Shown in pieces: positions 33,519 to 59,838 of a stretch of DNA of 64,000 nt. The stretch is from NCBI GenBank assembly GCA_001822835.1, contig MHSS01000002.1, positions 65,060 through 129,059 of the forward strand, in the 5' to 3' direction. This stretch comes from Candidatus Terrybacteria bacterium RIFCSPHIGHO2_01_FULL_48_17. GTDB taxonomy: Bacteria; Patescibacteriota; Minisyncoccia; Terrybacterales; 2-01-FULL-58-14. Each line of letters opens with the position of its first letter. The first letter of the stretch is position 1. The notes under the pieces were generated by a model that did no database searches, was not told where the DNA came from, and worked only from the letters and a program-made list of their open reading frames with translations. The position numbers and the translations under genes are program-made.

Positions 33519-34610
33519 CTACGCCTTTTTGTTTATAATGTCAAGAAACAGTTGTTCGTAGCCGTCCACCATCTTTTCTACCGTAAAATATTCCTCTACG
33601 TGTTTTCGGCACGCCCTACGATCAATTTGGTCAATTTTTTTCATAGCGTCGGCCATTTCCTCAACCGTATCTACAATAAATCCAGTCACTCCGTCTTTCA
33701 CCACTTCAGGTACCGATCCACGACGGAATGCGATTACTGGGGTTCCGCAGGCCATCGCCTCAATCATGGTAAGCCCAAATGGTTCTTCCCATCGAATAGG
33801 GATCAGTACGGCCCGGGCTTTTTGGTAGAAGCGAACAGTTTCCGAATAGGGGACAAGACCTTCGCTGCGAATCTGATTGCCATCAAGGAAGGGTTCGATG
33901 CGGGTATTCCAATAGTCATCTTTTCCCTGTCCCCCCACAATGCGAAGAGATTGTTTGCAAAGTCGTGCCGCCTCTATAGCTTCTGCCGTTCCCTTGTCTT
34001 TATTTATGCGACCGATGAAGAGGAAAAAATCTTCTGGGGTTTGGGAAAAAGGAAATTTTTCTATATCAATGCCGTTATATACTGTTTCTATCCAATGAAG
34101 ATTTTGCGCAGGTTTTCGTTGCGCATCGCTGATGGAAACAAGGTATTGGGGGGAATCTTTGAAGAGTCCAAAAGCTTTTTCATGCCAACTATATACCGGA
34201 GTATGAAGAGTATATATAGTTGGCGTCTTAGCAACAAAACCTAACGGAAGACCTCGATCAAGGGCATGGGCGTGAATTACATCAAATGGCTTGTCACGAT
34301 CCATTTTGTAGAGTTCCGCGAAAAGGCGTTGATCCCATAGATTAATGATTTTTTCCCGTTCGGTATGCCGAATATCCTCTGCCTGATAAATTTCCGGTTC
34401 TTGCGGGTAATTTTTATGAAACGGCTCAAGCTCTGCAGTAACAATAGTAGTTCCCTCAAGTCGCGAGCCATTGGGAGTAAAGAACGTAACTTCATGGCCG
34501 CGTTGCGCAAGTCCTTTATTGATCATCATGGCCATCCATATGGGGGCATACACGACCGAAGGTGGGGGCGGGGCGGGAAAGGCGGCAGTAACAATTGAAG
34601 CAATGCGCAT
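33519..34610 (-). CDS. glycosyltransferase family 4 (GT-B)
   Basis: EPFGLTMIEAMACGTPVIA...GSVPEVV...GFIV C-terminal GT4 signature. Confidence 0.85.
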   Translation of the reverse strand: MRIASIVTAAFPAPPPPSVVYAPIWMAMMINKGLAQRGHEVTFFTPNGSRLEGTTIVTAELEPFHKNYPQEPEIYQAEDIRHTEREKIINLWDQRLFAELYKMDRDKPFDVIHAHALDRGLPLGFVAKTPTIYTLHTPVYSWHEKAFGLFKDSPQYLVSISDAQRKPAQNLHWIETVYNGIDIEKFPFSQTPEDFFLFIGRINKDKGTAEAIEAARLCKQSLRIVGGQGKDDYWNTRIEPFLDGNQIRSEGLVPYSETVRFYQKARAVLIPIRWEEPFGLTMIEAMACGTPVIAFRRGSVPEVVKDGVTGFIVDTVEEMADAMKKIDQIDRRACRKHVEEYFTVEKMVDGYEQLFLDIINKKA

Positions 34611-34615
34611 ATCCT

Positions 34616-35671
34616 TTATTTTCTTCTTAAAATTTTGTAGTAGAGACGTTCATATGCCTCCACCATTCGTTCTTTTGAAAACATTCGTTCTACCCATCGA
34701 CGGCACATGTTTCTGTCAATCTCGTTGATGCGCGTCATCGCCGCCACTATTCCTGGAATGTTTTTGACAAGAAAACCGGTTTTCCCCTGAAGGACAAGTT
34801 CTGGCACTGATCCTCGAGGATATCCGATTATCGGCGTTCCGCACGCCATGGCTTCGGTCATGACAAGCCCAAATGGCTCATTCCATTCGATTGGGTAAAG
34901 AAGCGCGCGCGCACCGCCATAGAAAGCAGAGAGTTCGTGCTCGGGAATTTCTCCGATGTATTGTATTTTTCTTGATAGATGGGGCTTGATCGCTTTCCGA
35001 AAATAGTCGCGTTGCGTTGGGTCAAGTCGCCCCGCCAACAGTAATTTTTCGCCTGCACGTTCGCATGCAGCGATCGCGTTTTCGATCCCTTTGTGTTTAT
35101 TGATGCGCGCAATCCATGCAAAATAATCTTTCGGCCTTGAAGAAAAATAAAGATGTGCAAGATCGTTTCCGTTATAAATTACCCAGCTTTTGGGAAAGTG
35201 GACTTTTGCAATAGCGCGCTCGGATTTGCTGATAAATACCGCGTTGGTGCTGTGGCGATAGACACGGAAAAGCGAAAGCCGATCATCTAATCCGCGGGCT
35301 TCTCGGTAGAGTTGATTATGAAACGTGTGAACAGTTGGCGTTGCCGTAAGCTCTTGAAAAAAAAGTGTCCACAAATCAAGATGCGAGTGGATAATATCAA
35401 ATTGATGAGATTTCCCATAAACCGCGCTGAGATTCCGTAGATTCCACAGTGGATTTTGCCACTGAATACCTTCGGCAATGAGAGGTTTTGGGTATACGCT
35501 TACCAACTTCGCGCGCGTTTTTGAACCTGGCGCTGCAAAAAGCGTCACCTCATGACCATGTTCTATAAGTCCATCGCAGAGCCACGCAATAATGCGTTCA
35601 ATCCCGCCATATTTTTTTGGGGGGATGGTAAACCATAGGGGCGCAATTTGTGCGATGCGTAATTTTTTCAT
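34616..35671 (-). CDS. glycosyltransferase family 4 (paralog)
   Basis: EPFGLVMTEAMACGTPIIG signature; tandem with its neighbours. Confidence 0.85.
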   Translation of the reverse strand: MKKLRIAQIAPLWFTIPPKKYGGIERIIAWLCDGLIEHGHEVTLFAAPGSKTRAKLVSVYPKPLIAEGIQWQNPLWNLRNLSAVYGKSHQFDIIHSHLDLWTLFFQELTATPTVHTFHNQLYREARGLDDRLSLFRVYRHSTNAVFISKSERAIAKVHFPKSWVIYNGNDLAHLYFSSRPKDYFAWIARINKHKGIENAIAACERAGEKLLLAGRLDPTQRDYFRKAIKPHLSRKIQYIGEIPEHELSAFYGGARALLYPIEWNEPFGLVMTEAMACGTPIIGYPRGSVPELVLQGKTGFLVKNIPGIVAAMTRINEIDRNMCRRWVERMFSKERMVEAYERLYYKILRRK

Positions 35672-36702
35672 GCTTGTTTGGAAAGAATTTTTCTATAGAG
35701 CTTTTCGTATTCGTTTGTCATGCGCTCAAGCGAAAAGTGGCGCTCCGCAACCGCACGACACATGTGTCGCGATATCTCCGGGATTTTTGAAACGAGGCGC
35801 GCCATATGAAGCGTTGAGCGGGCAAAAAAACCGGTTTTGCCGTTTTCAATGATTTCAGGAACCGATCCTTCAGGAAATGCGAGTACGGGCGTGCCACAGG
35901 CGAGTGCCTCTATCATAACAAGCCCGAATGGTTCTCGGCGTAAGATCGGAAACAAAAGGGCGTCTGCTCCCTGCATGAGTTTTACCTTTTTGTCAAAATC
36001 TGCCTGTCCGATATAGATGATTTTTTCATTGAGACGCGGTTTAATTCTTCGCACAAAAAACTCCCAGCCGTCTTTTCCTACGATGTTTCCCGCAATAATT
36101 AATCTGCGTTTCGCAATGCGGGCGACCTCAATTGCTTCGATAACTCCTTTCTCTTCATCAATTTTTGAAAGGAACAGCAGATATCCCTCCGAGTGTTTGG
36201 AGAAAGGATAGCGCTCAAGCGGAAGGCCGTGGTAAATAACTTGTTCGATGGAAAGGGGAGATGCGCTTTGCGCTTGGTCTTTTGAAATGGCGACGAACTT
36301 GATGTTTTTTGCTTCTTGATAGAGGTGGTGGGTTTCGGGGTAAAGCGGACGATGCAGGGTTTGCACAATCGGGATGGTGAGTTGTCGTGCAAAGGGTGCA
36401 AAATAAAATCCAATGTGGCTATGGATGATGTCAAATTGATTGGCGTTTTCTGTAACTTTTTGAATTAAGTGAAGAATACATGCGTGGGGATCGCGCAGGG
36501 TTCGGTCGCGCCAAATCGCTTTGGGACACGAAGACACGAGGGTACCCGCTGTCTTGGAATCCCCTGATGCGAAAAGCGTAACGTGATGGCCGCGCGCAAT
36601 CAGCTCTTCGGTAAGAAGCGAGACGACATATTCTGTGCCGCCATGGGTAATTGGCGGCACGGGAACCCACACGGGCGCTATTTGTGCAATACGCAATGGC
36701 AC
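35668..36702 (-). CDS. glycosyltransferase family 4 (paralog)
   Basis: EPFGLVMIEALACGTPVLA signature; 4-nt overlap with the upstream gene. Confidence 0.85.
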   Translation of the reverse strand: MPLRIAQIAPVWVPVPPITHGGTEYVVSLLTEELIARGHHVTLFASGDSKTAGTLVSSCPKAIWRDRTLRDPHACILHLIQKVTENANQFDIIHSHIGFYFAPFARQLTIPIVQTLHRPLYPETHHLYQEAKNIKFVAISKDQAQSASPLSIEQVIYHGLPLERYPFSKHSEGYLLFLSKIDEEKGVIEAIEVARIAKRRLIIAGNIVGKDGWEFFVRRIKPRLNEKIIYIGQADFDKKVKLMQGADALLFPILRREPFGLVMIEALACGTPVLAFPEGSVPEIIENGKTGFFARSTLHMARLVSKIPEISRHMCRAVAERHFSLERMTNEYEKLYRKILSKQA

Positions 36703-36752: not shown

Positions 36753-37153
36753 TATTTACCGTTTAAACATTTTCGGAGGCGGCGTTTCAAAAGCATATAC
36801 CGTTTTCGCGTTGTGAACTTGGGATCAAGCACGTATTGGCGCGTGCGTTCTTGCGGAGGGCTGAATAGAGCCCCATCGGGAAATTGCTTGCGCGTAAGAT
36901 CAATAACGCTGCCATCCGGAAGTTGATTAAAATAGTGGCTTATTGGTTCACTTACCTCCGGCACAAATACGTTGACGCGTAGCAGCGTTCCCCCAAATTG
37001 GTCTTGTACGATACATGCGGTAACGGCGCACTGTCCCCATGCCGGATTTTTTCTTGACCAATTATGAGGATCAGCGCTTGTAGCACGCGACCACGCTCTC
37101 TCCAAGAGTATCCCCAGTTCTTTAAACTCTCGTTCCTGTTTGTCTTGAGACAC
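36752..37153 (-). CDS. hypothetical protein
   Basis: 133-aa ORF, basic C-terminus; no confident family assignment. Confidence 0.45.
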   Translation of the reverse strand: MSQDKQEREFKELGILLERAWSRATSADPHNWSRKNPAWGQCAVTACIVQDQFGGTLLRVNVFVPEVSEPISHYFNQLPDGSVIDLTRKQFPDGALFSPPQERTRQYVLDPKFTTRKRYMLLKRRLRKCLNGK

Positions 37154-37168
37154 TGCGATCCTCCTTTT

Positions 37169-37678
37169 CTACCGTGCTCGTTTTATTTCTCGTTCCCCAA
37201 AAGCGACTTCAAACGAAGTAATAAGCGCCTGCTCTATTGAGAGTGAGGCGAAATCCCATCCCGCTTTATTGCGCGCCTTTACTTGCACAATAAGCTCTTT
37301 AATTTCAAAGAGCGCGCACAATCGTGCGCAAAGCGTACAGGATGCGTATGGTTCTTCGCGAATCCATGCTTCATCAGAAGGTCCCATGCCGCAAATCACA
37401 AGTGACGCACCAGAAGGATCGTGACCATTTCGTACCGTATCTCTAAGTGCAGCCCATTCGGCATGTATTGCTTCGCAACGTTCCGCTTTCCCGCGCGGCC
37501 TGATGTTTTTTCGGTATTCGCAACACTGGAAACGCGCAACGCAGGGATGGACTTTTTTGGTATATCCGCGGCCGATGACTTCGCCGTCTTTTATGAGCAA
37601 TGCACCAAATTTCATGAGTGTGCAATCAGATTGCGCGGCGAGCGCAAGACATTCTTCCGCAAGCGATCGTTTGAACAT
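37169..37678 (-). CDS. cytidine/deoxycytidylate deaminase family protein (dCMP deaminase-like)
   Basis: Zinc-binding H(A)E (CEAIHAEWAAL) and PC..C-like (SCTLCAR) motifs. Confidence 0.7.
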   Translation of the reverse strand: MFKRSLAEECLALAAQSDCTLMKFGALLIKDGEVIGRGYTKKVHPCVARFQCCEYRKNIRPRGKAERCEAIHAEWAALRDTVRNGHDPSGASLVICGMGPSDEAWIREEPYASCTLCARLCALFEIKELIVQVKARNKAGWDFASLSIEQALITSFEVAFGEREIKRAR

Positions 37679-37744
37679 CGGACAGCATCCGTTCTTTATT
37701 TTTCAAGGTTAGTTTTTGTGTAACACGGTCTTTTAAAAAAGAAA

Positions 37745-37789
37745 AGGCCGACCGAAAAGGAGTCGCCGCGATCAGCGGCGACTCCTTTT
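37745..37789 (-). terminator. rho-independent terminator 3' of tRNA-Pro (GGAGTCGCCGC-GATC-GCGGCGACTCC flanked by A/T runs)
   Basis: Perfect 11-bp stem with TTTTT (plus strand) and TTTTCGG (minus strand) on either side. Confidence 0.7.
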
Positions 37790-37863
37790 TGGTCGGGGTG
37801 GGGAGAATCGAACTCCCGCTACAAGACCCCCAGCCTTGCGTACTACCATTATACGACACCCCG
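37790..37863 (-). tRNA. tRNA-Pro (anticodon GGG), CCA encoded
   Basis: Hand-folded cloverleaf: acceptor CGGGGUG/CACCCCG, D arm GUAU/GUAC, anticodon loop CUGGGGG, T arm GGGAG-UUCGAUU-CUCCC, 3' ACCA. Confidence 0.8.
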
Positions 37864-37930
37864 AAGCCCGCCTCTGGCGGGAAACTCGAAATCCTAAATC
37901 CGAAATCCAAAATAAATCCAAAACAAAAAA

Positions 37931-37966
37931 TTCGTATATTCGTATCTATTCGTATTTCGTAGTATG
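37931..37966 (+). repeat. 36-nt TTCGTA-hexamer motif, copy 1 (ttcgtatattcgtatctattcgtatttcgtagtatg)
   Basis: Near-identical to the motifs at 40255-40290 and 45986-46020; here it lies between rpmB (minus strand) and tRNA-Pro. Confidence 0.7.
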
Positions 37967-37967
37967 G

Positions 37968-38180
37968 TCATCTTCCCTTTTTTGCTACTGTTCTCATGCA
38001 CTGGGTGCATGTCAAAAGACGAGTGCCTATGGCAAAACCCTTATATGTATACGGCAGCCGTAACCATTGGAGGTTTGGTTTTCTGTGAACAATTTTAGTG
38101 GGGTTATAGTGACCTCGGAGAAGTTTTCGTTTTCCACCCTTTAACCTCCCTTTGCCACATAATGCGCATTTTTTTTCCAT
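37968..38180 (-). CDS. rpmB: 50S ribosomal protein L28 (bL28)
   Basis: 70 aa, CxxC...CxxC zinc-ribbon L28 pattern with NP...NLQ core. Confidence 0.75.
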   Translation of the reverse strand: MEKKCALCGKGRLKGGKRKLLRGHYNPTKIVHRKPNLQWLRLPYTYKGFAIGTRLLTCTQCMRTVAKKGR

Positions 38181-38292
38181 AAAGTTTTGGTTATTGGGAT
38201 TTGGACATTTGGATTTTATCTGTTACCCTGTGTAAGGTAAACCCTATGCCTTATCCCTTATACCCTATACCCTATACTCTCATTTTTGCAAC

Positions 38293-38958
38293 ATGGATCC
38301 TATACTAGGCGGCCTTTTCACTAATGGGTTTAGTTTGGTGGTGATTCTTTTTTCTGCCATTTTGCATGAAGTCGCGCATGGCGCGATGGCATTGCGTTTG
38401 GGCGACCCTACGGCAAAATATGCAGGCCGTTTAACATTAAACCCTCTTAAACATTTAGACCCGTTCGGTTCGGTGCTTTTGCCGTTGCTGCTTATTCTTG
38501 CCCGTTCGCCCATTCTTTTTGGCTATGCGTTGCCCGTGCCGTACAACCCCTATTATTTCAAAAATCCAAAATGGGGAAGCGTATGGGTAGGGCTTGCCGG
38601 ACCCCTCACGAATATCCTTATTGCCGTTGTCTGTGCCGTGGGGTTGCGAATTCTCTTGGGCCTTGGCCTTACATTGCCGCCGCTTTTCCCGCTGCTGATA
38701 TTTTATGCGGTATTGTTAAATCTTTTTTTGGCATTGTTTAACTTAATCCCCATTCCTCCGCTTGACGGCTCAAAGTTACTCTTGGCAATATTTCCTGAAC
38801 CCCTTCGTGCATTGCAGGATTTTTTAAACCGGCTTGGAGTATTTGCCTTAGCGCTTTTGTTCCCCATACTTATTTTGGTGTTCGCCCCCATTCTTTCCCG
38901 TATTGCGATTACGGTAGCCGTATGGCTTATTGGAGGCCCGCTTCCAACCCCTCTCTAA
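38293..38958 (+). CDS. site-2 protease (peptidase M50) family membrane metalloprotease
   Basis: HEVAHG HExxH motif in the first TM helix, second motif LNL(F/I)P..PLDGS, polytopic. Confidence 0.8.
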   Translation: MDPILGGLFTNGFSLVVILFSAILHEVAHGAMALRLGDPTAKYAGRLTLNPLKHLDPFGSVLLPLLLILARSPILFGYALPVPYNPYYFKNPKWGSVWVGLAGPLTNILIAVVCAVGLRILLGLGLTLPPLFPLLIFYAVLLNLFLALFNLIPIPPLDGSKLLLAIFPEPLRALQDFLNRLGVFALALLFPILILVFAPILSRIAITVAVWLIGGPLPTPL

Positions 38959-39017
38959 TCCTTGCGTTTATATTTGGGATACTGTACCCTGTTTCCTGAA
39001 CCCTAAATCCTATTATC

Positions 39018-39428
39018 ATGCCTACTATCCACCAGCTTGTGAAAAGGCCGCGTAAAAGGGCGATCCGAAAATCGACTTCGCCCGCATTGGAATATTCGTT
39101 TAATGCCATTAAAAACCGACCCACGTTTCATGCCTCTCCTTTCAAACGCGGCGTGTGTATCAAGGTAACGACTGTTACGCCCAAAAAACCAAATTCTGCG
39201 TTGCGCAAAGTTGCGCGCGTACGTTTGTCAAACGGCATGGAAGTGACGGCATATATTCCGGGTGAAGGGCATACGCTGCAAGAGCACTCGATGGTGGTAA
39301 TTCGCGGCGGGCGCGTGAAAGATTTGCCCGGCGTGCGGTATCACGTGGTGAGGGGCGTTTTGGACGCTTCTGGGGTTGAGGGAAGAAAGCGGCGAAGAAG
39401 CAAGTATGGTACAAAGCAGCCGAAATAA
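39018..39428 (+). CDS. rpsL: 30S ribosomal protein S12 (with about 13-aa insertion near the N-terminus)
   Basis: [11 protein letters not shown]...[13 protein letters not shown] core; extra segment [13 protein letters not shown] between PAL and KRGVC. Confidence 0.92.
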
Positions 39429-39447
39429 TTAAGAAACAACTTTCATT

Positions 39448-39933
39448 TTGTGGTTTTTAAGTATGCGCAGGAACCGTAAACTTCATAAAAGAGAACAACT
39501 TGATCGTTTGTATAACTCGCCGCTGGTGGGCAAGCTTATCAATTATGTAATGTACGACGGAAGGCGGCTTACCGCCGAGAGAGTTGTGTATGCGGCGCTT
39601 AAAGAGGCGGCAAAGCGCACGGAGAAAGAGCCGCTTGCGGTATTTGAGGAAGCGCTTAAAAATACGTCCCCCGTGCTTGAGGTGCGCTCACGGCGCGTAG
39701 GGGGCGCAACGTATCAGGTGCCGCGCGAGGTTCGAGGAGAGCGCAGAGTACAATTGTCGCTTCGGTGGATTGTGGCTGCATCCCGCGGACATAAAAAACG
39801 AAAGAATATGGCAGAGGCGTTAGCCGAAGAGTTGGCACTGGCAGCGCAAGGACAGGGAAGTGCGGTGAAAAAGCGGGAGGATATGCATAAAATGGCAGAG
39901 GCGAACAGGGCGTTTGCGCATTTTGCATGGTAG
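39448..39933 (+). CDS. rpsG: 30S ribosomal protein S7
   Basis: S7 signature (DGRRLTAE...ALKE; SRRVGGATYQVP). Confidence 0.92.
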   Translation: MWFLSMRRNRKLHKREQLDRLYNSPLVGKLINYVMYDGRRLTAERVVYAALKEAAKRTEKEPLAVFEEALKNTSPVLEVRSRRVGGATYQVPREVRGERRVQLSLRWIVAASRGHKKRKNMAEALAEELALAAQGQGSAVKKREDMHKMAEANRAFAHFAW

Positions 39934-40024
39934 CTTTGGCGCTCGGGTAGCCCGCCTCGCGTCTGCAGGGGACCCTTGCGTTCCCTAAGGCCGCTTCGGC
40001 GTGCCACCGCTCGCGCCAAAGCTC
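39934..40024. repeat. hairpin-rich intergenic repeat, copy B (arms gctttggcgctcggg / ccgctcgcgccaaagc; its core is shared with copy C)
   Basis: Begins at the nucleotide after the rpsG stop; about 75-nt core about 90% identical to 42463-42546. Confidence 0.7.
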
Positions 40025-40188
40025 TCTTTATCCGCATGCGCAAGGAGGAGGGGGAGAGAAAAAACTAACTCCACAGCTTCGCTCACGCTCAGCAAGATTT
40101 TCGGGACTTTTCAAAACGCACCCTTCGCGCCTTCTTAATTGGAGGGGTGCGCGGAAGCCGGAAAAGAAAGGGTAAGAAAAACGAAAGT

Positions 40189-40212
40189 AATCCGCGGTGC
40201 GGATTTTTATTT
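40189..40212 (+). terminator. terminator-like hairpin (AATCCGC-GGT-GCGGATT + TTTATTTGGG) between rpsG and fusA
   Basis: Stem with T-run; implies fusA is transcribed from its own promoter. Confidence 0.45.
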
Positions 40213-40220
40213 GGGAAAAT

Positions 40221-40255
40221 TTGACGTATACTGCTTGAAGCGTTATTGTTATAAT
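40221..40255 (+). promoter_or_regulatory. candidate sigma-70-type promoter for fusA (TTGACG-N17-TATTGT, then TATAAT)
   Basis: Same TTGACG-N17-TATT.T architecture as the candidate tuf promoter at 43274. Confidence 0.35.
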
Positions 40256-40290
40256 TCGTATATTCGTATTCATTCGTACTTCGTAGTATT
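40255..40290 (+). repeat. 36-nt TTCGTA-hexamer motif, copy 2, ending 5 nt before the fusA ATG
   Basis: ttcgtatattcgtattcattcgtacttcgtagtatt; no SD between the motif and the start codon. Confidence 0.7.
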
Positions 40291-40295
40291 TATTT

Positions 40296-42419
40296 ATGCC
40301 TCGACAATATCCAATAGAACGTCTTCGCGACATTGGCATCATTGCCCACATTGACGCGGGCAAGACAACCGTAACCGAACGGGTGCTTTTCTATACCGGG
40401 ATTTCTCACAAAATCGGGGAGGTGCATGAAGGGCAGGCCGTTATGGATTGGATGGAACAGGAGCGCGAACGTGGTATTACCATAACATCCGCCGCCACCA
40501 CTTGTTTTTGGATACCGCTTGAGTTTACCGGTCTTGTAGACCAAGCAGCGCGAAAAGCAAAAGAATTTCGGTTCAATATCATCGATACCCCGGGCCACGT
40601 TGACTTTACTATTGAAGTTGAGCGGTCATTGCGCGTGCTTGACGGGGGCGTGGTTGTATTTGATGGAGTTGCGGGGGTGGAGCCGCAGTCGGAAACCGTA
40701 TGGCATCAGGCAGACCGGTATCACGTTCCTCGTATTTGTTTCATTAACAAACTTGATCGCCTCGGGGCTTCATTTGAAAAATCGCTTGCATCAATTCACG
40801 AACGCTTAACCCCCCATGCCGTAGCGTTGCAGCTCCCTATTGGTATTGAGGATTCGTTTTCCGGCGTTGTTGATCTTTTGCTTGAAAAAGCAATTCGTTT
40901 TGAAGGGGAACACGGGGAGAAAGTAGTATATGGGGATATCCCTGAAAACATGAAAGCGGAGGTGCGAAAAGCGCGTGAAGCGCTTATTGAAAAAATTGTT
41001 GAGCATGACGATACGCTCATGGAAAAATATCTAGCAGGAGAGATGCCCTCGGTTGATGAGTTGCGCGCGGTTTTGCGAAAAGCAACCATTACAGGAAAGG
41101 TGATCCCGGTACTATGTGGCTCGGCCTTAAAAAACAAGGGTGTGCAGCCCTTGCTTGATGCGGTGGTTTATTATCTTCCGTCTCCACCCGAGCTTCCACC
41201 GGTTGAGGGTACGCACCCCAAAACCGAAGCGCAGGAAACCCGTGAGCCCGATGACAATATGCCCTTTGCCGCTTTGGCTTTTAAAGTTGCAACGGATCCT
41301 TATGTTGGGCAATTAACTTTCTTCCGTGTATATTCGGGAACCTTAGGTCGAGGATCTTACGTGTTAAATACTACTTCCGGCGAGAAAGAGCGGATTGGTC
41401 GCATTGTGCGCATGCATGCAAATACCCGAGAAGAGGTTGAGGAAATGTTTGCGGGAGATATCGGCGCAATCGTGGGACTCAAAAATACTTCTACCGGAGA
41501 TACGTTGTGTGCGCCAGAAAAACCAATTGTGCTTGAGCGTATTACCATTCCAGAACCCGTAATCTCCGTACGGATTGAACCAAAATCGAAAGCGGATGAA
41601 GAAAAACTTGGGATGGCGCTTCGCCGGCTTGCAGAAGAAGATCCCACGTTTCGTGTTTCCGGTGATCAAGAAACGGGTGATACGATTATTTCTGGAATGG
41701 GGGAGCTTCATCTTGAAATTATTGTCGACAGAATGAAACGCGAATTTTCCGTTGATGCAAATGTCGGCGCGCCACAAGTTGCATACAAAGAAACCGTTTT
41801 AACAACGGCGGAAGCGGAAGGAAAATATATTCGCCAGACGGGCGGGCGCGGGCAATACGGCCATGTATGGCTTCGGGTGGAGCCGACGGAGCGAGGATCG
41901 GGTTTTGAATTTGTTGATGCAATTAGGGGAGGAGTAATTCCTAACGAATTTATCCCTGCAGTTGGCAAGGGCGTGAAGGAGGCAATGGATAAAGGAATTG
42001 TGGCCGGTTACCCGATGGTGGATGCGAAAGTAACGCTTTATGACGGCTCGTACCATGACGTTGATTCTTCAGAGGCCGCGTTTAAAATCGCCGGCTCCAT
42101 GGCATTTCAGGAAGCAGCAAAACGGGCAAAGCCGGTTATGTTGGAACCGGTAATGAGCTTATCGGTGGTGGTACCAGAACAATTTTTGGGCGATATTACG
42201 GGGGATATTTCGTCCAGACGCGGCCGCATTGAGGAGCTTGGCGAGCGCGGACAAATGAAGGAGGTAGATTCAAAAGTGCCCTTGTCTGAAATGTTTGGCT
42301 ATGCCACGCAACTTCGCTCTATGACACAGGGAAGGGGAGCGTTTACCATGGAATTTTCACATTACGAGGAGGTGCCCGGGAATATTGCGCAGGAGATTGC
42401 GGCAGGGAAGCGGAGATAA
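40296..42419 (+). CDS. fusA: elongation factor G
   Basis: [10 protein letters not shown]1 motif, DTPGHVDF, full five-domain length (707 aa). Confidence 0.95.
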
Positions 42420-42420
42420 T

Positions 42421-42590
42421 GCTCGCGATAGCGCTTTTCGCTTTCTTCGGCTTGTCGATTTCTTGGGCGCTCGGGTAACCCGCCTCACGTCTGCAGGGTA
42501 CCCTTCCGTTCCCTAAGGCCGCTTGGCGGGCCACCGCTCGCGCCCAACAATTTTTGACCTCGTAACCCGCTCAAATCACTATCGCTCGCT
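42421..42590. repeat. hairpin-rich intergenic repeat, copy C (composite: arms like copy A, core like copy B)
   Basis: Starts 1 nt after the fusA stop; left arm gctcgcgatagcgcttttcgctttc matches copy A; right arm ctcgtaacccgctcaaa...atcgctcgc matches copy A 5170-5203. Confidence 0.7.
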
Positions 42591-42763
42591 AGAGAAATCG
42601 AGACGCTTTTCAAAACGCATCTTCTCGCGCCTAAGAATGAGGGAGGAAAAAAGAAGCCGCCGGTGGGCGGCTGTTGTTATCCCGAGCCGGGTCGAAGGAT
42701 TGATTTTTTTGATAGAAATGGTATATGATTTTTGCACGTTTAGAATTCGAAAAGGAGGATGTT

Positions 42764-43480
42764 ATGACTGCCCCGAATATCTATCTTCGCGCATGGTATG
42801 CGCGATACGGTTTCTCCGATGCCGAATCGTTTCGAGATGCTCTTCTTTCTTCTTTCTCGGGCGCGCCTCTTTTGTCACAGTTTCAGGAAAGGAAAATCGT
42901 GTTATTCCGCAGAACCCGAATATCGCATTTCGCCTTACTTGATGTCTATGACGATGGGTTTCATATTTTATTGAATCGAGAAAGAAGCGTACGCCAGTGG
43001 CTTGTTGACATCGGACACGAGCTTATTCATACGTTTCATTATGATCTTTCGACTCTTCCGCCAGTAAATCTGTTTCGAAAGATGTTCGGGGATCCCGATC
43101 CCGCGCTTGAATATTTTTGTGATTCTGTGGCACGCCGGTGGTTGTTGCAAGATCGGAACGCACGGGCATTGGTTGCACTCTTACGGTCGCAAAGATGGCA
43201 GGGCGAGGTGTTGTGGATTCCAAAACCGCTCCATATGGGCGGTTTCCCCTTTTTATGTATATATTGTAAGGGCTTGACGGATTGTTTTGCCTTGACTATT
43301 ATAATGGTTGCGCTGTATAACAGTGAAGTTAGCTTTATTAATGAAATCCCTCGATTGCGCAGTGATTGCAAAAGGAAGTCCCTCGTTTTGCTTGGGGATC
43401 TACTTTCGCAGCCACTCGCGAAGCTCGCGGGCGAAAGTAACATATGGCAGGAAAATTTGAACGCACCAAACCTCACGTAA
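42764..43480 (+). CDS. hypothetical HExxH protein (ImmA/IrrE- or SprT-like putative zinc metallopeptidase) inserted between fusA and tuf
   Basis: AAAAGGAGG SD 8 nt before the ATG at 42764; motif [13 protein letters not shown]; the 3' end overlaps the tuf start by 37 nt and contains the candidate tuf promoter, so the true stop may be earlier (possibly decayed). Confidence 0.45.
43274..43305 (+). promoter_or_regulatory. candidate sigma-70-type promoter for tuf (TTGACG-N17-TATTATAAT)
   Basis: Good -35/-10 with 17-nt spacer about 140 nt upstream of the tuf ATG. Confidence 0.4.
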
Positions 43481-44637
43481 ACGTAGGAACTGTTGGTCAC
43501 GTTGACCACGGCAAGACCACCCTGACTGCGGCAATCATGCACGGCCTGAAACTTAAAGGTCTTATTGACACCGCAGAATCGGTCGACCAGATCGATAATG
43601 CTCCCGAAGAGAAGGCGCGTGGTATTACCATAGCCCTTCACCACTCCGAATACGAAACAGAAAAGCGTCACTATGCACACATCGATGCTCCCGGACACGC
43701 CGACTATATTAAAAACATGATTACGGGGGCAGCCCAAATGGACGGTGCGGTTTTGGTGGTTTCTGCAGCCGACGGCCCGATGCCCCAGACGCGCGAACAT
43801 ATTCTTTTGGCGCGGCAGGTGGGAGTTCCTAAAATTATCGTCTTTTTGAATAAAGTTGACGCGGTTGACGATCCTGAATTTATTGATATTGCAGAATCGG
43901 AAGTGCGGGACCTTTTGAAAAAATATGAGTATCCTGGCGATGAAATTCCTGTGGTTAGGGGATCGGCGCTCAAAGCCCTTGAGGCAAAATCCGCGGATGA
44001 CGAGGCGGTAAAACCCATTTTTGAGCTTTTGGCAAAATTGGATGAGTATATTCCGGAACCGCAAAGAGATATCGACAAACCTTTCTTGATGCCCGTTGAG
44101 GATATTTTTTCCATTGAGGGTCGCGGAACAGTGGTTACCGGAAGGATCGAACGCGGGCTTATTAAGCTTAATGATGAGATAGAAGTCATTGGATTGCGGC
44201 CAACGCAAAAGACCGTGATTACGGGTATTGAGATGTTCCGCAAGAGCTTGGACGAAGGCCGGGCAGGGGATAATGCCGGACTCCTTTTACGAGGCCTTAA
44301 GAAGGAGGATGTCGAGCGCGGGCAGGTCCTTGCAAAGCCAGGAAGCGTTACCCCGCATACTGAATTTGAGTGCGAACTTTATGTGTTAACAAAAGATGAA
44401 GGCGGCCGCCATACGCCCTTCTTTACCGGTTACAAACCCCAGTTTTATATCCGAACGTGTGACGTGACTGGAGAGGTTACGCTTCCGGAGGGCACAGAAA
44501 TGGTGATGCCAGGAGATACGGTGTCGGTGAAATCGAAATTAATGGCTCCGGTTGCGCTGGAGGAGAAACAGCGGTTTGCGGTGCGCGAAGGCGGACGAAC
44601 TGTTGGTGCAGGAGTGGTTACAAAAATTATTCAATAA
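43444..44637 (+). CDS. tuf: elongation factor Tu
   Basis: [26 protein letters not shown] motifs; 397 aa. Confidence 0.97.
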
Positions 44638-44711
44638 TACACACCATTGATTTGCGCTAGGGTGATAACGGGGCGCGCTGTTCTTTGAGGTGATATTTTA
44701 TCCGTTTTTAC

Positions 44712-45074
44712 ATGGCCGATGCTCCCTTAAAGGAAAAGAAAACAAAAGCGGTGCCGGAGATCGAAACGACACCAAAGCTACGTATTAAAGTTCGGGCATA
44801 CGACCATAAGGTTTTGGACAATTCGTGCCGACAAATTGTGGAAACGGCGTTGCGCGCAAATGCGGAAGTATATGGTCCGGTACCTTTACCCACGGAGTTT
44901 CATCGTTACACCGTAAACCGTTCCACGTTTGTGCACAAAGATGCACAGGAGCAATTCGAAATTCGTGTTCATCGTCGCCTCATTGATATCGTAAACCCTT
45001 CCCAGAAACTTATCGATGCGCTCACCAATTTGACCTTGCCAACCGGTGTTGATGTTGAGATAAAGGCCGTTTAA
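44712..45074 (+). CDS. rpsJ: 30S ribosomal protein S10
   Basis: S10 core ([14 protein letters not shown]...GPVPLPT...[10 protein letters not shown]). Confidence 0.92.
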
Positions 45075-45178
45075 GTATTTCTTTTAGAAACATGCGAATG
45101 AACTAGTATGCACTGTTGAGTCGCGAGAGCCAGGCCCGCTCCGGCGGGCTTTCTTTATGCCCGCGGCATTTAAACATT

Positions 45179-45781
45179 ATGAAATTTCTTTTAGGAACGA
45201 AAATAGGAATGAGCCAAACATGGAAAACGGATGGGGGCGTAGTTCCGCTTACCGTTATTCAGGCGGGGCCCATGGTGGTTACTCAAAAAAAGACATCAGA
45301 AAGGGATGGTTATGAAGCCATACAAGTATCCCTTGGCAAAAGAAAACGGCTTAAGAAGCCGCAACAAGGACATCTGAAGAAGGGCAAAACTGATACCGCA
45401 CGCTGGTTGCGCGAAGCTCGCGGGGCATGGAACGTAGAGTCAGGGGCCGTTATTGATGTATCCGTATTTGTTCCAGGTGATATTGTTAAGGTTTCCGGCA
45501 TTTCCAAAGGGAAGGGTTTTCAGGGAGGTGTAAAGCGACATGGTTTTCATGGGGCTTCGGCAACGCATGGTACCAAACATGCGCATAGACAGCCCGGATC
45601 TATTGGATCTTCTTGGCCCGAGCGAGTGCGAAAGGGAAAGAGAATGGCAGGAAGGATGGGGCATGAGCGGGTTACGGTGAAAAACCTAGAAGTGGTGAGT
45701 GTGGACAAAGAGAAAAATTTGTTGGCGGTGAAAGGAGCGGTGCCTGGTGCACGGGGAACGTTGCTTGAGATACGGGGCTAG
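45179..45781 (+). CDS. rplC: 50S ribosomal protein L3
   Basis: MKFLLGTKIGMSQ... L3 N-terminus; the ORF track's upstream extension from 45116 spans a GC hairpin and is unlikely to be coding. Confidence 0.9.
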   Translation: MKFLLGTKIGMSQTWKTDGGVVPLTVIQAGPMVVTQKKTSERDGYEAIQVSLGKRKRLKKPQQGHLKKGKTDTARWLREARGAWNVESGAVIDVSVFVPGDIVKVSGISKGKGFQGGVKRHGFHGASATHGTKHAHRQPGSIGSSWPERVRKGKRMAGRMGHERVTVKNLEVVSVDKEKNLLAVKGAVPGARGTLLEIRG

Positions 45782-45784
45782 ATC

Positions 45785-45945
45785 GGATGCTTGGGATGCG
45801 TCTCGAAAAGACGTGTCGCGCGCCCAGCGAGGCGCGCGCACTCTCGCTCGGCGTTGTTCTCCCGCCAACGATTAAACTTTTAGGGAAGGCGGGAACCATG
45901 CCCGCAACGCCTCCGCGAAGCTTTTCTCAACACATCCCAAGCATC
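45785..45945. repeat. hairpin-rich intergenic repeat, copy D (arms ggatgcttgggatg / catcccaagcatc)
   Basis: Starts 4 nt after the rplC stop; shares the ggaaccatgcccgc segment with copies E and F. Confidence 0.65.
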
Positions 45946-45985
45946 TGACGAGATTTTCATTTTGTCAAAGTGGCGTGAAAAAAGA

Positions 45986-46020
45986 TTCGTATATTCTTAT
46001 CGATTCGTACTTCGTAGTAT
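45986..46020 (+). repeat. 36-nt TTCGTA-hexamer motif, copy 3, ending 3 nt before the rplD ATG
   Basis: ttcgtatattcttatcgattcgtacttcgtagtat. Confidence 0.7.
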
Positions 46021-46023
46021 TTT

Positions 46024-46677
46024 ATGAAGGTTAAGGTTTATACCAAAGAAGGAAAACAGAACGGCACCGTTGAGCTGCCGGATTCTGTGTTTGGCGTTCC
46101 CATGAACAATGATTTGTTACATCAGGCAATGAGCGTTATGCTTTCGCGAAGGCGTCAGCCGCGTGCGCATACCAAAACCAGAGAAGAGGTGCGGGGCGGT
46201 GGGCGTAAGCCCTGGCGTCAAAAAGGAACTGGGTTTGCGCGGCATGGTTCGCGCCGCTCGCCCATTTGGAAGGGCGGTGGTGTAACGTTTGGCCCACGCA
46301 AAGATAAAAGATTTGCAAAACGAATTCCCGATGCCATGAAGAAAAAAGCATTGGCCGTTGCATTGTCTCAAAAAGCACGAGACGAGGAGCTTGCCGTTAT
46401 TGAAAAGATTTCCGTATCGCAGCCAAAAACAAAAGAAGCGGCATTGCTTCTTACCACGCTTCTCGCGTCAATTTTTAAAGTAGAAAAGAAAGCAAAAAAA
46501 CCATCGGTGCTTATTGCTTTTGCGAAAGAAAATCAGGGGCAGGCATTCCGTGCAGTGCGTAATATACCCTATGCCCAAGCATTCCGTCCGGAAAATCTCA
46601 ATCTTCTTGAGGTGCTGGAATATCGCTATATTTTAATCCCAAAAGAAACAGTGGATGATTTGGTGAAACGTTTTTAA
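46024..46677 (+). CDS. rplD: 50S ribosomal protein L4
   Basis: L4 family pattern (RRQPRAHTKTR...GGGRKPWRQKGTG(F)ARHGS). Confidence 0.92.
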   Translation: MKVKVYTKEGKQNGTVELPDSVFGVPMNNDLLHQAMSVMLSRRRQPRAHTKTREEVRGGGRKPWRQKGTGFARHGSRRSPIWKGGGVTFGPRKDKRFAKRIPDAMKKKALAVALSQKARDEELAVIEKISVSQPKTKEAALLLTTLLASIFKVEKKAKKPSVLIAFAKENQGQAFRAVRNIPYAQAFRPENLNLLEVLEYRYILIPKETVDDLVKRF

Positions 46678-46709
46678 GCTTTTGCCATTTATCATTTATC
46701 TTCCTTGTT

Positions 46710-47099
46710 ATGAGTCCTTTACTGCCTTTTCGTAAGGCAAAAGAGAAAAAGAGGAAACCAAGACAGGTGGAGCAGAGCAAAGAAAAGCAAGAGCCATCAG
46801 AGACAAAGATGGGCGGCACGACAGCCCATGGGATTTTATTGTCTCCGCATGTTACGGAAAAGGCGGGAAGGATAGAAGGGTTGAATCAATATATGTTTCG
46901 CATTGCGCGTGGGGCAAAAAAATCAGAGGTTCTTCAGGCAGTTTCGCAAATATACGGTGTGCGGCCCACCCGGATAAATATTATCAATCTTCCTGGAAAG
47001 TCCCGCAGGCGCGGCTCGTTTATTGGCAAAAAAAGTGGAAAGCGAAAAGCGATTGTTACTTTACCCGAGGGGAAAACCATTGAAGTATTACCGAAATAA
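46710..47099 (+). CDS. rplW: 50S ribosomal protein L23 (with a Lys-rich N-terminal extension; start may be internal)
   Basis: L23 core (ILLSPHVTEKA...YMFRIARGAKKSEV); 129 aa versus about 95 typical. Confidence 0.8.
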   Translation: MSPLLPFRKAKEKKRKPRQVEQSKEKQEPSETKMGGTTAHGILLSPHVTEKAGRIEGLNQYMFRIARGAKKSEVLQAVSQIYGVRPTRINIINLPGKSRRRGSFIGKKSGKRKAIVTLPEGKTIEVLPK

Positions 47100-54576: not shown

Positions 54577-55848
54577 ATGTTTGAGAAACTTTTACTTTTG
54601 TGGAAAATTTCGGAATTGCGCGCAAAGATTCTTTTTGTGCTTGGCATGCTTGCGGTGTTCCGGCTCGCCGCATCGATCCCCGTGGCCGGTGTCGACACAG
54701 AACGGCTTGCTGCATTTTTCCAGTCGAATCAGCTTTTTGGCCTCATCAATATTTTTACGGGGGGAACGCTTGAAAATTTATCAATCGCCATGCTTGGTGT
54801 GGGGCCTTATATTACCGCAACCATTATTCTGCAGTTGCTGACCATGATCTTCCCGCGTTTAAAGGAAATGTATTACGAAGAGGGCGAACAGGGGCGGCAG
54901 AAATTTAACCAAATCGGGCGTCTTTTGACCGTCCCCTTGGCGATTCTGCAAGGTTTTGGTTTTTTGCGACTTTTAGCTTCACAGGGCGTTGTAGAGTTAA
55001 CACCTATCACCACCGCAGTTAACATTGCGGTCGTAGTTGCAGGAACCATTCTTTTAATGTGGCTTGGGGAACTGATTACGGAAAAAGGTATTGGCAACGG
55101 TGTTTCGCTTATCATCTTTGCCGGTATTGTGGCATCTATCCCGCAATCACTCTTTCAGTTTTTCTCAACGTGGGATCAGACAAAACTTTTTCAAACCGTA
55201 GCATTTGCGGCAATTGCAATTATTGTTGTGGCGGGTGTGGTTTTAATTAACGAGGCACAGCGGCGCGTTCCTATTGCGTATGCCAAGCGTATCCGCGGAT
55301 TTCGTATGTACGGTGGTGTTTCAACGCACCTTCCTATACGCGTAAATTCCGCTGGCGTTATTCCCATTATTTTTGCCTTGTCCATCGTGCTTTTTCCGGG
55401 AATGATAGCCCAATTTTTCACTACGGTGGATGTTCCTCAAATTGCAAGTATCGCTAATACAATTCAAAATATTTTTTCCGTAAATAACTGGACGAGCATA
55501 TTTATCTATTTTGGTTTAGTGTTTATATTCACTTATTTTTATACCGCTGTCATTTTTGATCCCAAGGAAATTTCACAAAACATCCAGCGCTCAGGCGGAT
55601 TTATCCCAGGAATTCGGCCGGGCTCGCCCATGGTAAGCCATCTCTCGCGTATTATTAACCGAACTACTCTTGTCGGAGCTTCGTTTTTGGGAATCATTGC
55701 GGTGTTGCCACAAGTGATGCAGCAGGGCTTGAATCTGCCCGCCCTCACCATCGGGGGAACGGCGGTATTGATTGTCGTGTCGGTGGTGATTGAGACGATG
55801 AAACAAATAGAAGCGCAGCTGACAATGCGGGAATACGAAGGGTTTTAG
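54577..55848 (+). CDS. secY: preprotein translocase subunit SecY
   Basis: 10-TM SecY pattern, 423 aa, canonical position after L15. Confidence 0.93.
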   Translation: MFEKLLLLWKISELRAKILFVLGMLAVFRLAASIPVAGVDTERLAAFFQSNQLFGLINIFTGGTLENLSIAMLGVGPYITATIILQLLTMIFPRLKEMYYEEGEQGRQKFNQIGRLLTVPLAILQGFGFLRLLASQGVVELTPITTAVNIAVVVAGTILLMWLGELITEKGIGNGVSLIIFAGIVASIPQSLFQFFSTWDQTKLFQTVAFAAIAIIVVAGVVLINEAQRRVPIAYAKRIRGFRMYGGVSTHLPIRVNSAGVIPIIFALSIVLFPGMIAQFFTTVDVPQIASIANTIQNIFSVNNWTSIFIYFGLVFIFTYFYTAVIFDPKEISQNIQRSGGFIPGIRPGSPMVSHLSRIINRTTLVGASFLGIIAVLPQVMQQGLNLPALTIGGTAVLIVVSVVIETMKQIEAQLTMREYEGF

Positions 55849-55850
55849 AG

Positions 55851-56000
55851 CTCGCGCAGGGCCATTTGCGAAACGCGACAATCCCCAGCGAGGATTGTCG
55901 CTCTGTCCTCGCCGCGCTCCCCCGCATACGGTTTATATTTTATAAGGAAGCGGGGACCATGCCCGCGCGGCTGCGAAGGTTCGCAAATGTCCCTTCGCTC
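55851..56000. repeat. hairpin-rich intergenic repeat, copy E (arms cgcagggccatttgcgaa / ttcgcaaatgtccct); same subfamily as copy F
   Basis: Starts 3 nt after the secY stop; about 25-nt terminal segments identical to 59705/59814; internal perfect hairpin gcgacaatcc/ggattgtcgc. Confidence 0.7.
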
Positions 56001-56099
56001 ACCCCAAAAAAGTTGCTTGGCTGCTTCATTCATTGTTTCGTAAAGAGAAGGGTAGGATAAAAGGAGACCGGCCGTGCATTGCACGGCCGGTTTTTGTTT

Positions 56100-59694: not shown

Positions 59695-59838
59695 CACGAG
59701 TTCACGCAGGGCCATTTGCGAAACGCGCGCAGCCCCAGCGTGTCTGCGCGCTCTGTCCTCGCCGCGCTCGCCCCGATGGCCATCGGGGCACCATGCCCGC
59801 GCGGCTGCGGAGGTTCGCAAATGTCCCTCCGCTCACTC
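59695..59838. repeat. hairpin-rich intergenic repeat, copy F (same subfamily as copy E)
   Basis: Arms cacgcagggccatttgcgaaacgcg / aggttcgcaaatgtccctccgctcac; internal hairpins gcgcag...ctgcgc and ccccgatgg/ccatcgggg. Confidence 0.7.

Follow-up and report, generated by a model that had tools for sequence, protein, structure and literature searches.

A predicted minimal ImmA/IrrE-type metallopeptidase gene between fusA and tuf in Candidatus Terrybacteria

In the 64,000-nucleotide stretch of Candidatus Terrybacteria bacterium RIFCSPHIGHO2_01_FULL_48_17 analysed here (the window; all positions are counted from its first letter), an open reading frame (ORF) at 42764-43480 lies between fusA and tuf, the genes for elongation factors EF-G and EF-Tu. 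This ORF is most probably a genuine protein-coding gene of a Parcubacteria/CPR genome, inserted as a unit. The functional protein would correspond to residues 1 to ~156 and form a minimal zinc metallopeptidase domain of the ImmA/IrrE type (MEROPS M78-like) that stands alone, while residues 157-238 would be non-coding. The M78 superfamily is already known; what is newly described is an unannotated divergent family member in an unusual but explicable place, and no new mechanism or system is involved.

The gene in the fusA-tuf spacer

The genes fusA and tuf are both on the forward strand and are separated by 1024 nt (Table 1), in agreement with the ~1 kb reported in an initial annotation made from the sequence alone. 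That annotation also gave 50-100 nt as the normal length of the junction, which is too short for this group, as the closest gene-free relatives have 187-320 nt. The closest named homologues of the window EF-Tu are from Candidatus Terrybacteria, with others from Parcubacteria. The gene order, M50-rpsL-rpsG-fusA-(X)-tuf-rpsJ-rplC with X being the ORF studied, is as in two related loci (L027 and L028) and corresponds to the canonical str operon (rpsL-rpsG-fusA-tuf). Unlike the canonical operon, the cluster has an extra gene with a promoter-like site and a terminator-like hairpin, and tuf has its own promoter and a leader of ~135 nt.

The ORF encodes 238 amino acids (aa) and ends with a TAA at 43478-43480, so that its 3' end overlaps the start of tuf by 37 nt. 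An in-frame ATG upstream, at 42725, would give 251 aa, and this longer version is the one in GenBank (OHA52848.1, "hypothetical protein A3A30_03050", Candidatus Terrybacteria). The strong Shine-Dalgarno sequence (SD) AAAAGGAGG noted initially is present, although its spacing to the ATG is 5 nt and not 8. At the orthologous locus of a sister lineage (L001), the SD is kept as AAAAAGGAGG, 5 nt before a GTG start, and the -10 of the promoter-like site aligns with TGTATAAT; both the SD and the -10-like region are thus conserved between the window and L001. With a promoter-like site, a strong SD, the ORF, and a hairpin followed by a T-run, the gene is predicted to be its own transcription unit.

Table 1. 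Features of the fusA-tuf region, in window coordinates
Feature	Position	Strand	Basis
fusA (EF-G, 707 aa), upstream neighbour	40296..42419	+	ORF list; Pfam domains of the identical gene on contig L007
GC-rich intergenic repeat "copy C", long imperfect hairpin (TTGGGCGC...GCGCCCAA)	42462..42547	+	Sequence comparison
Intrinsic-terminator-like hairpin closing the fusA unit (AGCCGCC-GGTG-GGCGGCT, T-rich tail)	42655..42672	+	Consensus scan
Promoter-like site of the peptidase gene (TTGATT-N18-TATGAT), function predicted	42700..42729	+	Consensus scan, 9/12 matches
Shine-Dalgarno AAAAGGAGG	42750..42758	+	Read from the sequence; 5 nt before ATG 42764
Conserved coding core, residues 1-156, predicted M78 (ImmA/IrrE)-like metallopeptidase	42764..43231	+	Orthologue, substitutions, homologues, AlphaFold2, hhalign
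HELIH (H85, E86, H89), predicted zinc-binding/catalytic motif	43016..43030	+	Near-invariant in 33- and 122-sequence alignments
E116, predicted third zinc ligand, in E-x-F-C-D-x-x-A-x-x-W	43109..43111	+	Near-invariant; aligned to E-T-L-C-N of IrrE/PprI
Terminator-like hairpin AAACCGCTC-CATAT-GGGCGGTTT then CCCCTTTTTA	43223..43255	+	Consensus scan; ends the conserved core
Non-conserved read-through tail, residues 157-238 and stop	43232..43480	+	Orthologue stop, indels, no homologue
tuf promoter TTGACG-N17-TATTAT/TATAAT	43274..43305	+	Consensus scan, 10/12 matches
tuf 5' leader hairpin, ending 4 nt before the start codon	43401..43439	+	RNAalifold
tuf (EF-Tu, 397 aa)	43444..44637	+	ORF list; homologues named elongation factor Tu

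A word-indexed search of 5.8 billion proteins gave two matches only, an identical protein and the orthologue P0002. The same 238-aa ORF is carried by 11-12 contigs that come from several samples. P0002 has 157 aa, is 62-63% identical to the window protein, covers 66% of the query, and is the product of the gene at L001 (93% EF-Tu identity), where it also lies directly upstream of tuf-rpsJ-rplC. Upstream of it, a gene for a Mur ligase and one for a Cys-rich 147-aa protein stand in place of fusA; the peptidase gene would have stayed joined to the tuf promoter in the sister lineage despite a rearrangement that removed fusA. Codon-aligned differences between the window gene and that for P0002 number 44, 39, and 76 at positions 1, 2, and 3, with proportions of nonsynonymous (pN) and synonymous (pS) differences of 0.25 and 0.66; for tuf in the same comparison, pN is 0.046 and pS 0.64. 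The resulting pN/pS of ~0.4 (dN/dS ~0.2) indicates purifying selection on the peptidase gene, although EF-Tu is constrained more strongly. The orthologue, the ~120 clusters of remote homologues described below, and the coding type of substitution are the reasons for regarding the ORF as a real gene rather than a product of chance.

The 147-aa protein at L001 (4298-4741 of that locus) has no counterpart in the window and no Pfam match; it contains a Cys-rich zinc-finger region that resembles DnaJ (CGRCGGSGKT...CLGCGGKGTT...CHRCG).

Relationship to the M78 peptidases

With a two-sequence profile and a cut-off of E<1e-3, an exhaustive HMMER search through 1.84 billion cluster representatives returned 122 of them, mostly of 140-170 aa. 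Those small-family proteins that have source information are all unnamed or "hypothetical," and none has a recorded Pfam match. The 13-residue motif carrying HExxH, which the initial annotation had pointed out, is at residues 82-94 (nt 43007-43045). Conservation of H85, E86, and H89 is 90% or higher both in the alignment of all 122 sequences and in that of the 33 closest, and the motif lies within a predicted helix (residues 76-92). In M78 peptidases the third zinc ligand is a Glu that follows HExxH by ~25-30 residues, within a helix of the pattern E-x-x-[AC]-[ND]-x-x-A; E116 is 27 residues past H89 and is near-invariant along with C119. W126 is found in all of the 33 closest sequences, in which G84, H85, E86, H89, T90, F91, E116, F118, and C119 are at least 90% conserved. 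The family consensus, LGHE[LI]GHTFxYDL..P...(~15)...ExFCDxFAxxWL, matches the ImmA/IrrE (M78) signature, HExxH with a Glu ligand 27 residues downstream.

The initial annotation compared the motif with ImmA/IrrE or SprT-like domains, and only the first of these comparisons is borne out. The ImmA/IrrE family PF06114 is matched by 36 of the 122 relatives (best 9e-14) and by 10 of the 33 closest (best E 3.7e-6); the window protein is below the gathering score of 22 bits, as are P0009 (16.8 bits) and P0012 (15.3 bits), the relatives closest to it. When the small family was compared by hhalign with ten long relatives (255-350 aa) from the same match list, eight at or above the 22-bit PF06114 cut-off and two within 0.3 bit of it, the probability was 99.5% and the E-value 1.2e-22 over 118 columns with 28% identity, the reference proteins having themselves been recruited by the query profile. 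A profile of the mixed 122 members matched the PDB sequences of PprI (E 4e-7) and IrrE (E 1.3e-6) over a region spanning the preceding beta-strand, the HExxH, and the E-x-L-C-N segment, with HELIH aligned to HEISH of IrrE/PprI. A profile of the 33-member alignment had no significant match in PDB, the best being archaemetzincin at E 0.28. The profile searches proposed as a check on the HExxH assignment have therefore given support at the level of the family, from hhalign and from the PDB profile, and this goes against a chance ORF. The SprT-like family PF10263 is matched by one of the 122 relatives (E 0.0034), and the conserved downstream ligand is Glu, not His; SPRTN structures (6MDX and 6MDW) are weak matches to the predicted model, with E 0.4-0.7 and TMq 0.34-0.35.

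An AlphaFold2 model produced with the 33-sequence alignment has a predicted local distance difference test score (pLDDT) of 93.9 and a predicted template modelling score (pTM) of 0.89; a model from a two-sequence alignment gave a pLDDT of 53 and was discarded. Alongside three helices at the N-terminus, the model has a sheet of three strands, a helix with the HExxH (76-92), and one with the Glu (113-128). In a fold search against solved structures, PprI/IrrE was the best plausible match, with the weak scores of probability 0.66-0.80, TMq 0.46-0.47, and E 0.2-0.4, and in a search against models, phage "IrrE protein" models reach E 8e-4.

Several M78 proteins can be compared with the window protein. 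IrrE/PprI from Deinococcus (PDB 3DTE and 8SLM) also has HExxH on the active-site helix with a beta-strand before it and, ~27 residues further on, a Glu within a helix of the pattern E-x-[LF]-C-[ND]. IrrE is a ~300-aa protein that also has helix-turn-helix (HTH) and GAF-like domains and whose cleavage target is the repressor DdrO; in contrast, the window protein would be a bare peptidase domain of ~156 aa with a distinct three-helix N-terminus and no linked repressor gene, and the fold similarity between IrrE and the model is weak (TM 0.46). ImmA from Bacillus subtilis ICEBs1, like other ImmA proteins of the ImmA/ImmR pairs in phages and integrative and conjugative elements (PF06114), is a stand-alone M78 domain about as small as the window protein. 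ImmA is encoded beside its XRE-type substrate ImmR within a mobile element, while the window gene has neither an HTH neighbour nor a mobile-element context and its product is below the PF06114 threshold. The closest PF06114-positive relatives are M78 proteins of 255-350 aa with the sequence "HEIGHTFFYDL..PP" (P0040, P0057, P0090, and others), which share with the small family the strand, HE[IL]xHTF[FH]YD, PP, and E..C..A motifs. These proteins have an extra C-terminal region of ~150 aa that is absent from the small Patescibacteria family, and their C-terminal helix ends in L-M-P while that of the small family ends in W-L. CapP, an M78 protease associated with the cyclic-oligonucleotide-based antiphage signalling system (CBASS), has weak core matches (PADLOC model E 0.016, for P0002 only; 7T5T E 0.12, with the mixed profile), but neither score reaches significance, and the surroundings of the window gene contain no CBASS genes.

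From these comparisons it is concluded that the window protein is probably a divergent, minimal member of the M78 superfamily, with peptidase activity and substrate predicted by homology. By analogy with ImmA, IrrE/PprI, and CapP, the protein would most likely bind one Zn2+ and cleave a specific, probably regulatory, protein substrate, with E116 on the second helix acting as the third zinc ligand. No gene for the proposed substrate is found beside the peptidase gene. A literature search on IrrE or M78 in the Candidate Phyla Radiation (CPR)/Patescibacteria found no relevant paper.

The end of the gene and the tuf control region

The initial annotation remarked that the C-terminal third of the ORF is less protein-like, and the orthologue agrees: P0002 ends ...VLWIPTPL-TAA at the position aligned with window residue 156, where the window frame continues, and the L001 frame has five further in-frame stops past that point. 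Beyond residue 156 the window and L001 differ by indels of 29, 1, 1, and 2 nt that break the frame, and conservation shifts from codon-periodic to blocks of DNA, with near-identity over the promoter and over the last ~100 nt before tuf. No homologue of residues 157-238 was found among the 5.8 billion proteins searched, and family members end at ~140-170 aa. An earlier true stop, also suggested initially, does not exist in the window, as neither the core nor the rest of the ORF has one before 43478.

Where the orthologue has its TAA, the window has CAT in the loop of the hairpin at the end of the gene. The L001 hairpin is GCCACTCT-AACG-AGAGTGGC then TTTCTTTTAT, with the TAA beginning at the last stem base and entering the loop. 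The hairpin has been retained despite differences at most bases of the 3' arm, with fold energies of -12 kcal/mol in the window (z -1.9) and -14.2 kcal/mol in L001. Judging from this alignment, the window gene has lost its stop codon, and the frame runs 82 more codons through the terminator hairpin, the tuf promoter, the leader hairpin, and the first 37 nt of tuf. The tail would then be non-coding DNA that stays open by chance and lies outside the protein family.

The overlap of the ORF with a TTGACG-N17 promoter and with the start of tuf, both recognised initially, is confirmed. The sequence CTTGAC..TTG.CT..ATA recurs at a comparable distance before tuf in L001, L026, L027, L028, and L029, and the block shared with L026, L027, and L028 is CTTGACG...TTGCCTTGACTA..ATA, indicating that the promoter is probably ancestral to the clade. 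The part of the leader at 43340-43443, the last ~100 nt, is ~93% identical to L001 in spite of saturation at synonymous sites, and RNAalifold finds compensatory C-G to U-A changes in the leader hairpin of L029. The leader is structured, tuf has no evident SD, and the leader could be a structured regulatory one.

Origin, distribution, and alternative readings

Genomes with 85-87% EF-Tu identity have fusA-tuf spacers of 187 nt (L027), 229 nt (L028), and 320 nt (L026) without an ORF, and all three keep M50-rpsL-rpsG-fusA-tuf-rpsJ. The check for an uninterrupted junction in related genomes that the initial annotation had recommended is thus answered, and because the next-closest genomes have an ORF-free junction, the peptidase gene is considered a lineage-specific insertion, the excess length of the window spacer being ~0.7-0.8 kb. 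In the simplest history, the tuf promoter and leader would already have been part of the ancestral spacer. The ancestor shared by L001 and the window lineage would then have gained the peptidase unit at a point downstream of the fusA terminator and upstream of the tuf promoter, and a later rearrangement in L001 would have replaced the DNA upstream of the peptidase gene. The locus shows that the str cluster of this Terrybacteria clade is split into separately promoted units, with spacers that accept extra genes. Among other Terrybacteria-like relatives, L026 has unannotated ORFs of 163 and 132 aa between rpsG and fusA (944-1869 of that locus), and in L029 the region before tuf contains a further unannotated ORF, unrelated and no shorter than 159 aa (2-481). 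The comparison suggests that the str-cluster spacers of the clade are permissive and are hot spots for gene gain.

Twelve of the 13 loci located in species-representative genomes are from metagenome-assembled genomes (MAGs) of Patescibacteria, including Peribacteria, Parcubacteria, Saccharibacteria, Staskawicz-, Giovannoni-, and Taylorbacteria. The neighbours of the small-family genes are housekeeping genes (for example valS, argS, pheST, tsf-rpsB, rplS, secDF, and folD) and there is no recurring partner. The one actinobacterial match (L024) is a long canonical protein encoded beside an HTH gene and a helicase gene. A tblastn search with the window S12, S7, EF-G, EF-Tu, S10, and L3 against 13 remote-homologue loci gave no matches, therefore linkage to tuf is not a trait of the family.

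The initial annotation called the gene "foreign-style," a description that the surroundings do not support. Nothing significant was found with PADLOC (best capP, E 0.016) or with PHROGs (best phrog_2439, E 0.0046), both best scores being for P0002 only and the window protein having nothing below E 0.046 in either. No integrase, repeat-bounded element, HTH gene, or phage gene is near the window gene, no second family member is present within the window, and the GC content of the gene (0.42-0.47) is only slightly low relative to its neighbours (~0.50). Phage-derived and defence-system readings were rejected on the hidden Markov model evidence from PHROG and PADLOC.

In two remote-homologue loci, L017 (3968-4639, a Staskawiczbacteria MAG) and L021 (3266-4757, labelled Saccharibacteria), the small M78 gene follows rluD-rplS, and is itself followed by one or two genes for proteins of ~220 aa with an N-terminal HTH-like segment (..LSLNEIITETGFAKGSVSLWVRDIELT..) and by an apparent tRNA gene, as read from ORF translation. 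These neighbours are the sole hint of an HTH partner for the small family.

Several results weigh against reading the ORF as a working M78-type gene with a non-coding tail. The 238-aa window protein gave no usable match to Pfam, NCBIfam, or PDB sequences, with no Pfam family even at E<=10. Promoter and terminator assignments are consensus matches only, and with a single close orthologue the selection is not assignable to the window lineage specifically. No adjacent HTH/XRE repressor gene is present here, in L001, or consistently in 16 other loci, so an ImmA-like mechanism would have to operate without its usual partner, which M78 peptidases typically but not always have beside or fused to them. 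The 82-codon open tail is long for chance (~2% by a (61/64)^82 estimate), and a stop-less ORF that enters its own terminator could mean that the window copy is non-functional. Such decay is conceivable but unlikely: loss of the stop would give a non-stop mRNA ending at the gene's own terminator, with rescue by transfer-messenger RNA (tmRNA) and degradation of the product, while the sister copy would still be working. The exchange of TAA for CAT in the hairpin loop and the retained hairpin and T-run at 43223-43255 are what decay would predict, and residue 122 is V in the window where at least 90% of the closest family members have F. However, the core of 156 codons is free of frameshifts and internal stops and keeps all predicted catalytic residues, the translation and promoter signals are conserved, the identical ORF recurs in several samples, and the pN/pS ratio indicates purifying selection over most of the divergence. 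In addition, the window hairpin is only moderately stable, which makes read-through to the TAA at 43478 plausible.

Since the orthologue stops at the aligned position and again five times beyond it, the indels break the frame, conservation follows the promoter and leader blocks and not codons, the tail has no homologues, and family members are all ~140-170 aa, it is quite improbable that the full 238-aa product is functional, with the 82-residue tail and its 25-residue hydrophobic stretch serving as a new membrane anchor or domain that overlaps the tuf control region; the length of the open tail would be in its favour, as would the 238 or 251 aa that several sources give from gene calling. Phages and integrative elements often carry ImmA/IrrE domains, and the best significant fold matches are to phage IrrE-like models. 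Together with the HTH gene and helicase beside the distant long homologue L024 and the slightly low GC content, this could be taken to mean that the gene is a remnant of mobile-element or prophage immunity, an ImmA-like anti-repressor protease that has lost its ImmR/XRE partner and is foreign DNA in the str cluster. This reading is very unlikely given the PHROG and PADLOC results, the absence of mobile-element or phage genes nearby and of a second copy in the window, and the location of all small homologues that could be placed (140-215 aa) in Patescibacteria MAGs among housekeeping genes. There is only a slight chance that the gene and tuf are functionally coupled, with upstream translation setting read-through transcription into tuf and/or the initiation of EF-Tu translation, or that the small M78 family, spread across Patescibacteria, is a housekeeping protease acting on a translation-related substrate. 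The 3' end of the gene lies within the terminator-like hairpin shortly before the tuf promoter, and under coupling, ribosomes moving past the lost stop would melt the terminator and the promoter region as well as the leader hairpin, which would cover a tuf start that has no SD. An ORF open by chance across a long spacer, with a coincidental HExxH, would account for the missing direct database matches, but it is refuted almost completely by the coding pattern of substitution with the orthologue, the 122 homologue clusters, the pLDDT of 93.9, and the hhalign E-value near 1e-22.

If the ORF is an M78-type gene with a non-coding tail, the gene model for OHA52848.1 (251 aa; 238 aa from the SD-linked ATG) needs correction to a conserved protein of ~156 aa, the remainder being tuf regulatory DNA. 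The analysis also gives a name to ~120 unannotated protein clusters as a minimal, partner-less ImmA/IrrE-type peptidase family. The located members are nearly all from Patescibacteria, which have very small genomes where a retained protease likely matters, and a corrected annotation and a description of the family are worthwhile, with biochemical role and substrate as predictions.

The spacer upstream of the peptidase gene contains the GC-rich repeat copy C, as reported initially. It is 92% identical to a second copy of ~87 nt at 39934-40020, just after rpsG, with zero such matches expected by chance. The similarity continues beyond the copies into a shared CTTTTCAAAACGCA block and then a GAAGCCG.. 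terminator (to ~40170 and ~42640), and a looser counterpart of the repeat follows the Mur ligase gene in L001. An Rfam scan of 37000-47000 returned tRNA only, with no family for the intergenic repeat or the tuf leader. The hairpin at the end of fusA has a fold energy of -18.3 kcal/mol (z -3.1) and an equivalent in L001 (GAAGCCGCCGG..GGC).

Other repeats and genes were observed in the window. A 41-nt AT-rich motif of TTCGTA repeats (AAAATTCGTATATTCGTATCTATTCGTAYTTCGTAGTAT) is present on the forward strand at 37925-37965, 40249-40289, and 45980-46020 with 85-90% identity. One copy stops 6 nt short of the fusA ATG (40296) and another 3 nt short of the rplD ATG (46024), which is the usual position of a SD, and the motif may be a translation-initiation or regulator-binding element. 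On the minus strand, a 70-aa ORF at 37968-38180 resembles ribosomal protein L28 by eye; a tRNA gene on the same strand (37793-37863; Rfam, 58 bits) precedes the M50 peptidase-rpsL cluster. Three direct repeats of ~119 nt, ~1.1 kb apart with 67-71% identity, are found at 33700-35967 and are probably tandem paralogous genes. A repeat pair of 76 and 51 nt, with 83-94% identity, is present 3.8 kb apart at 55848-56002 and 59698-59836.

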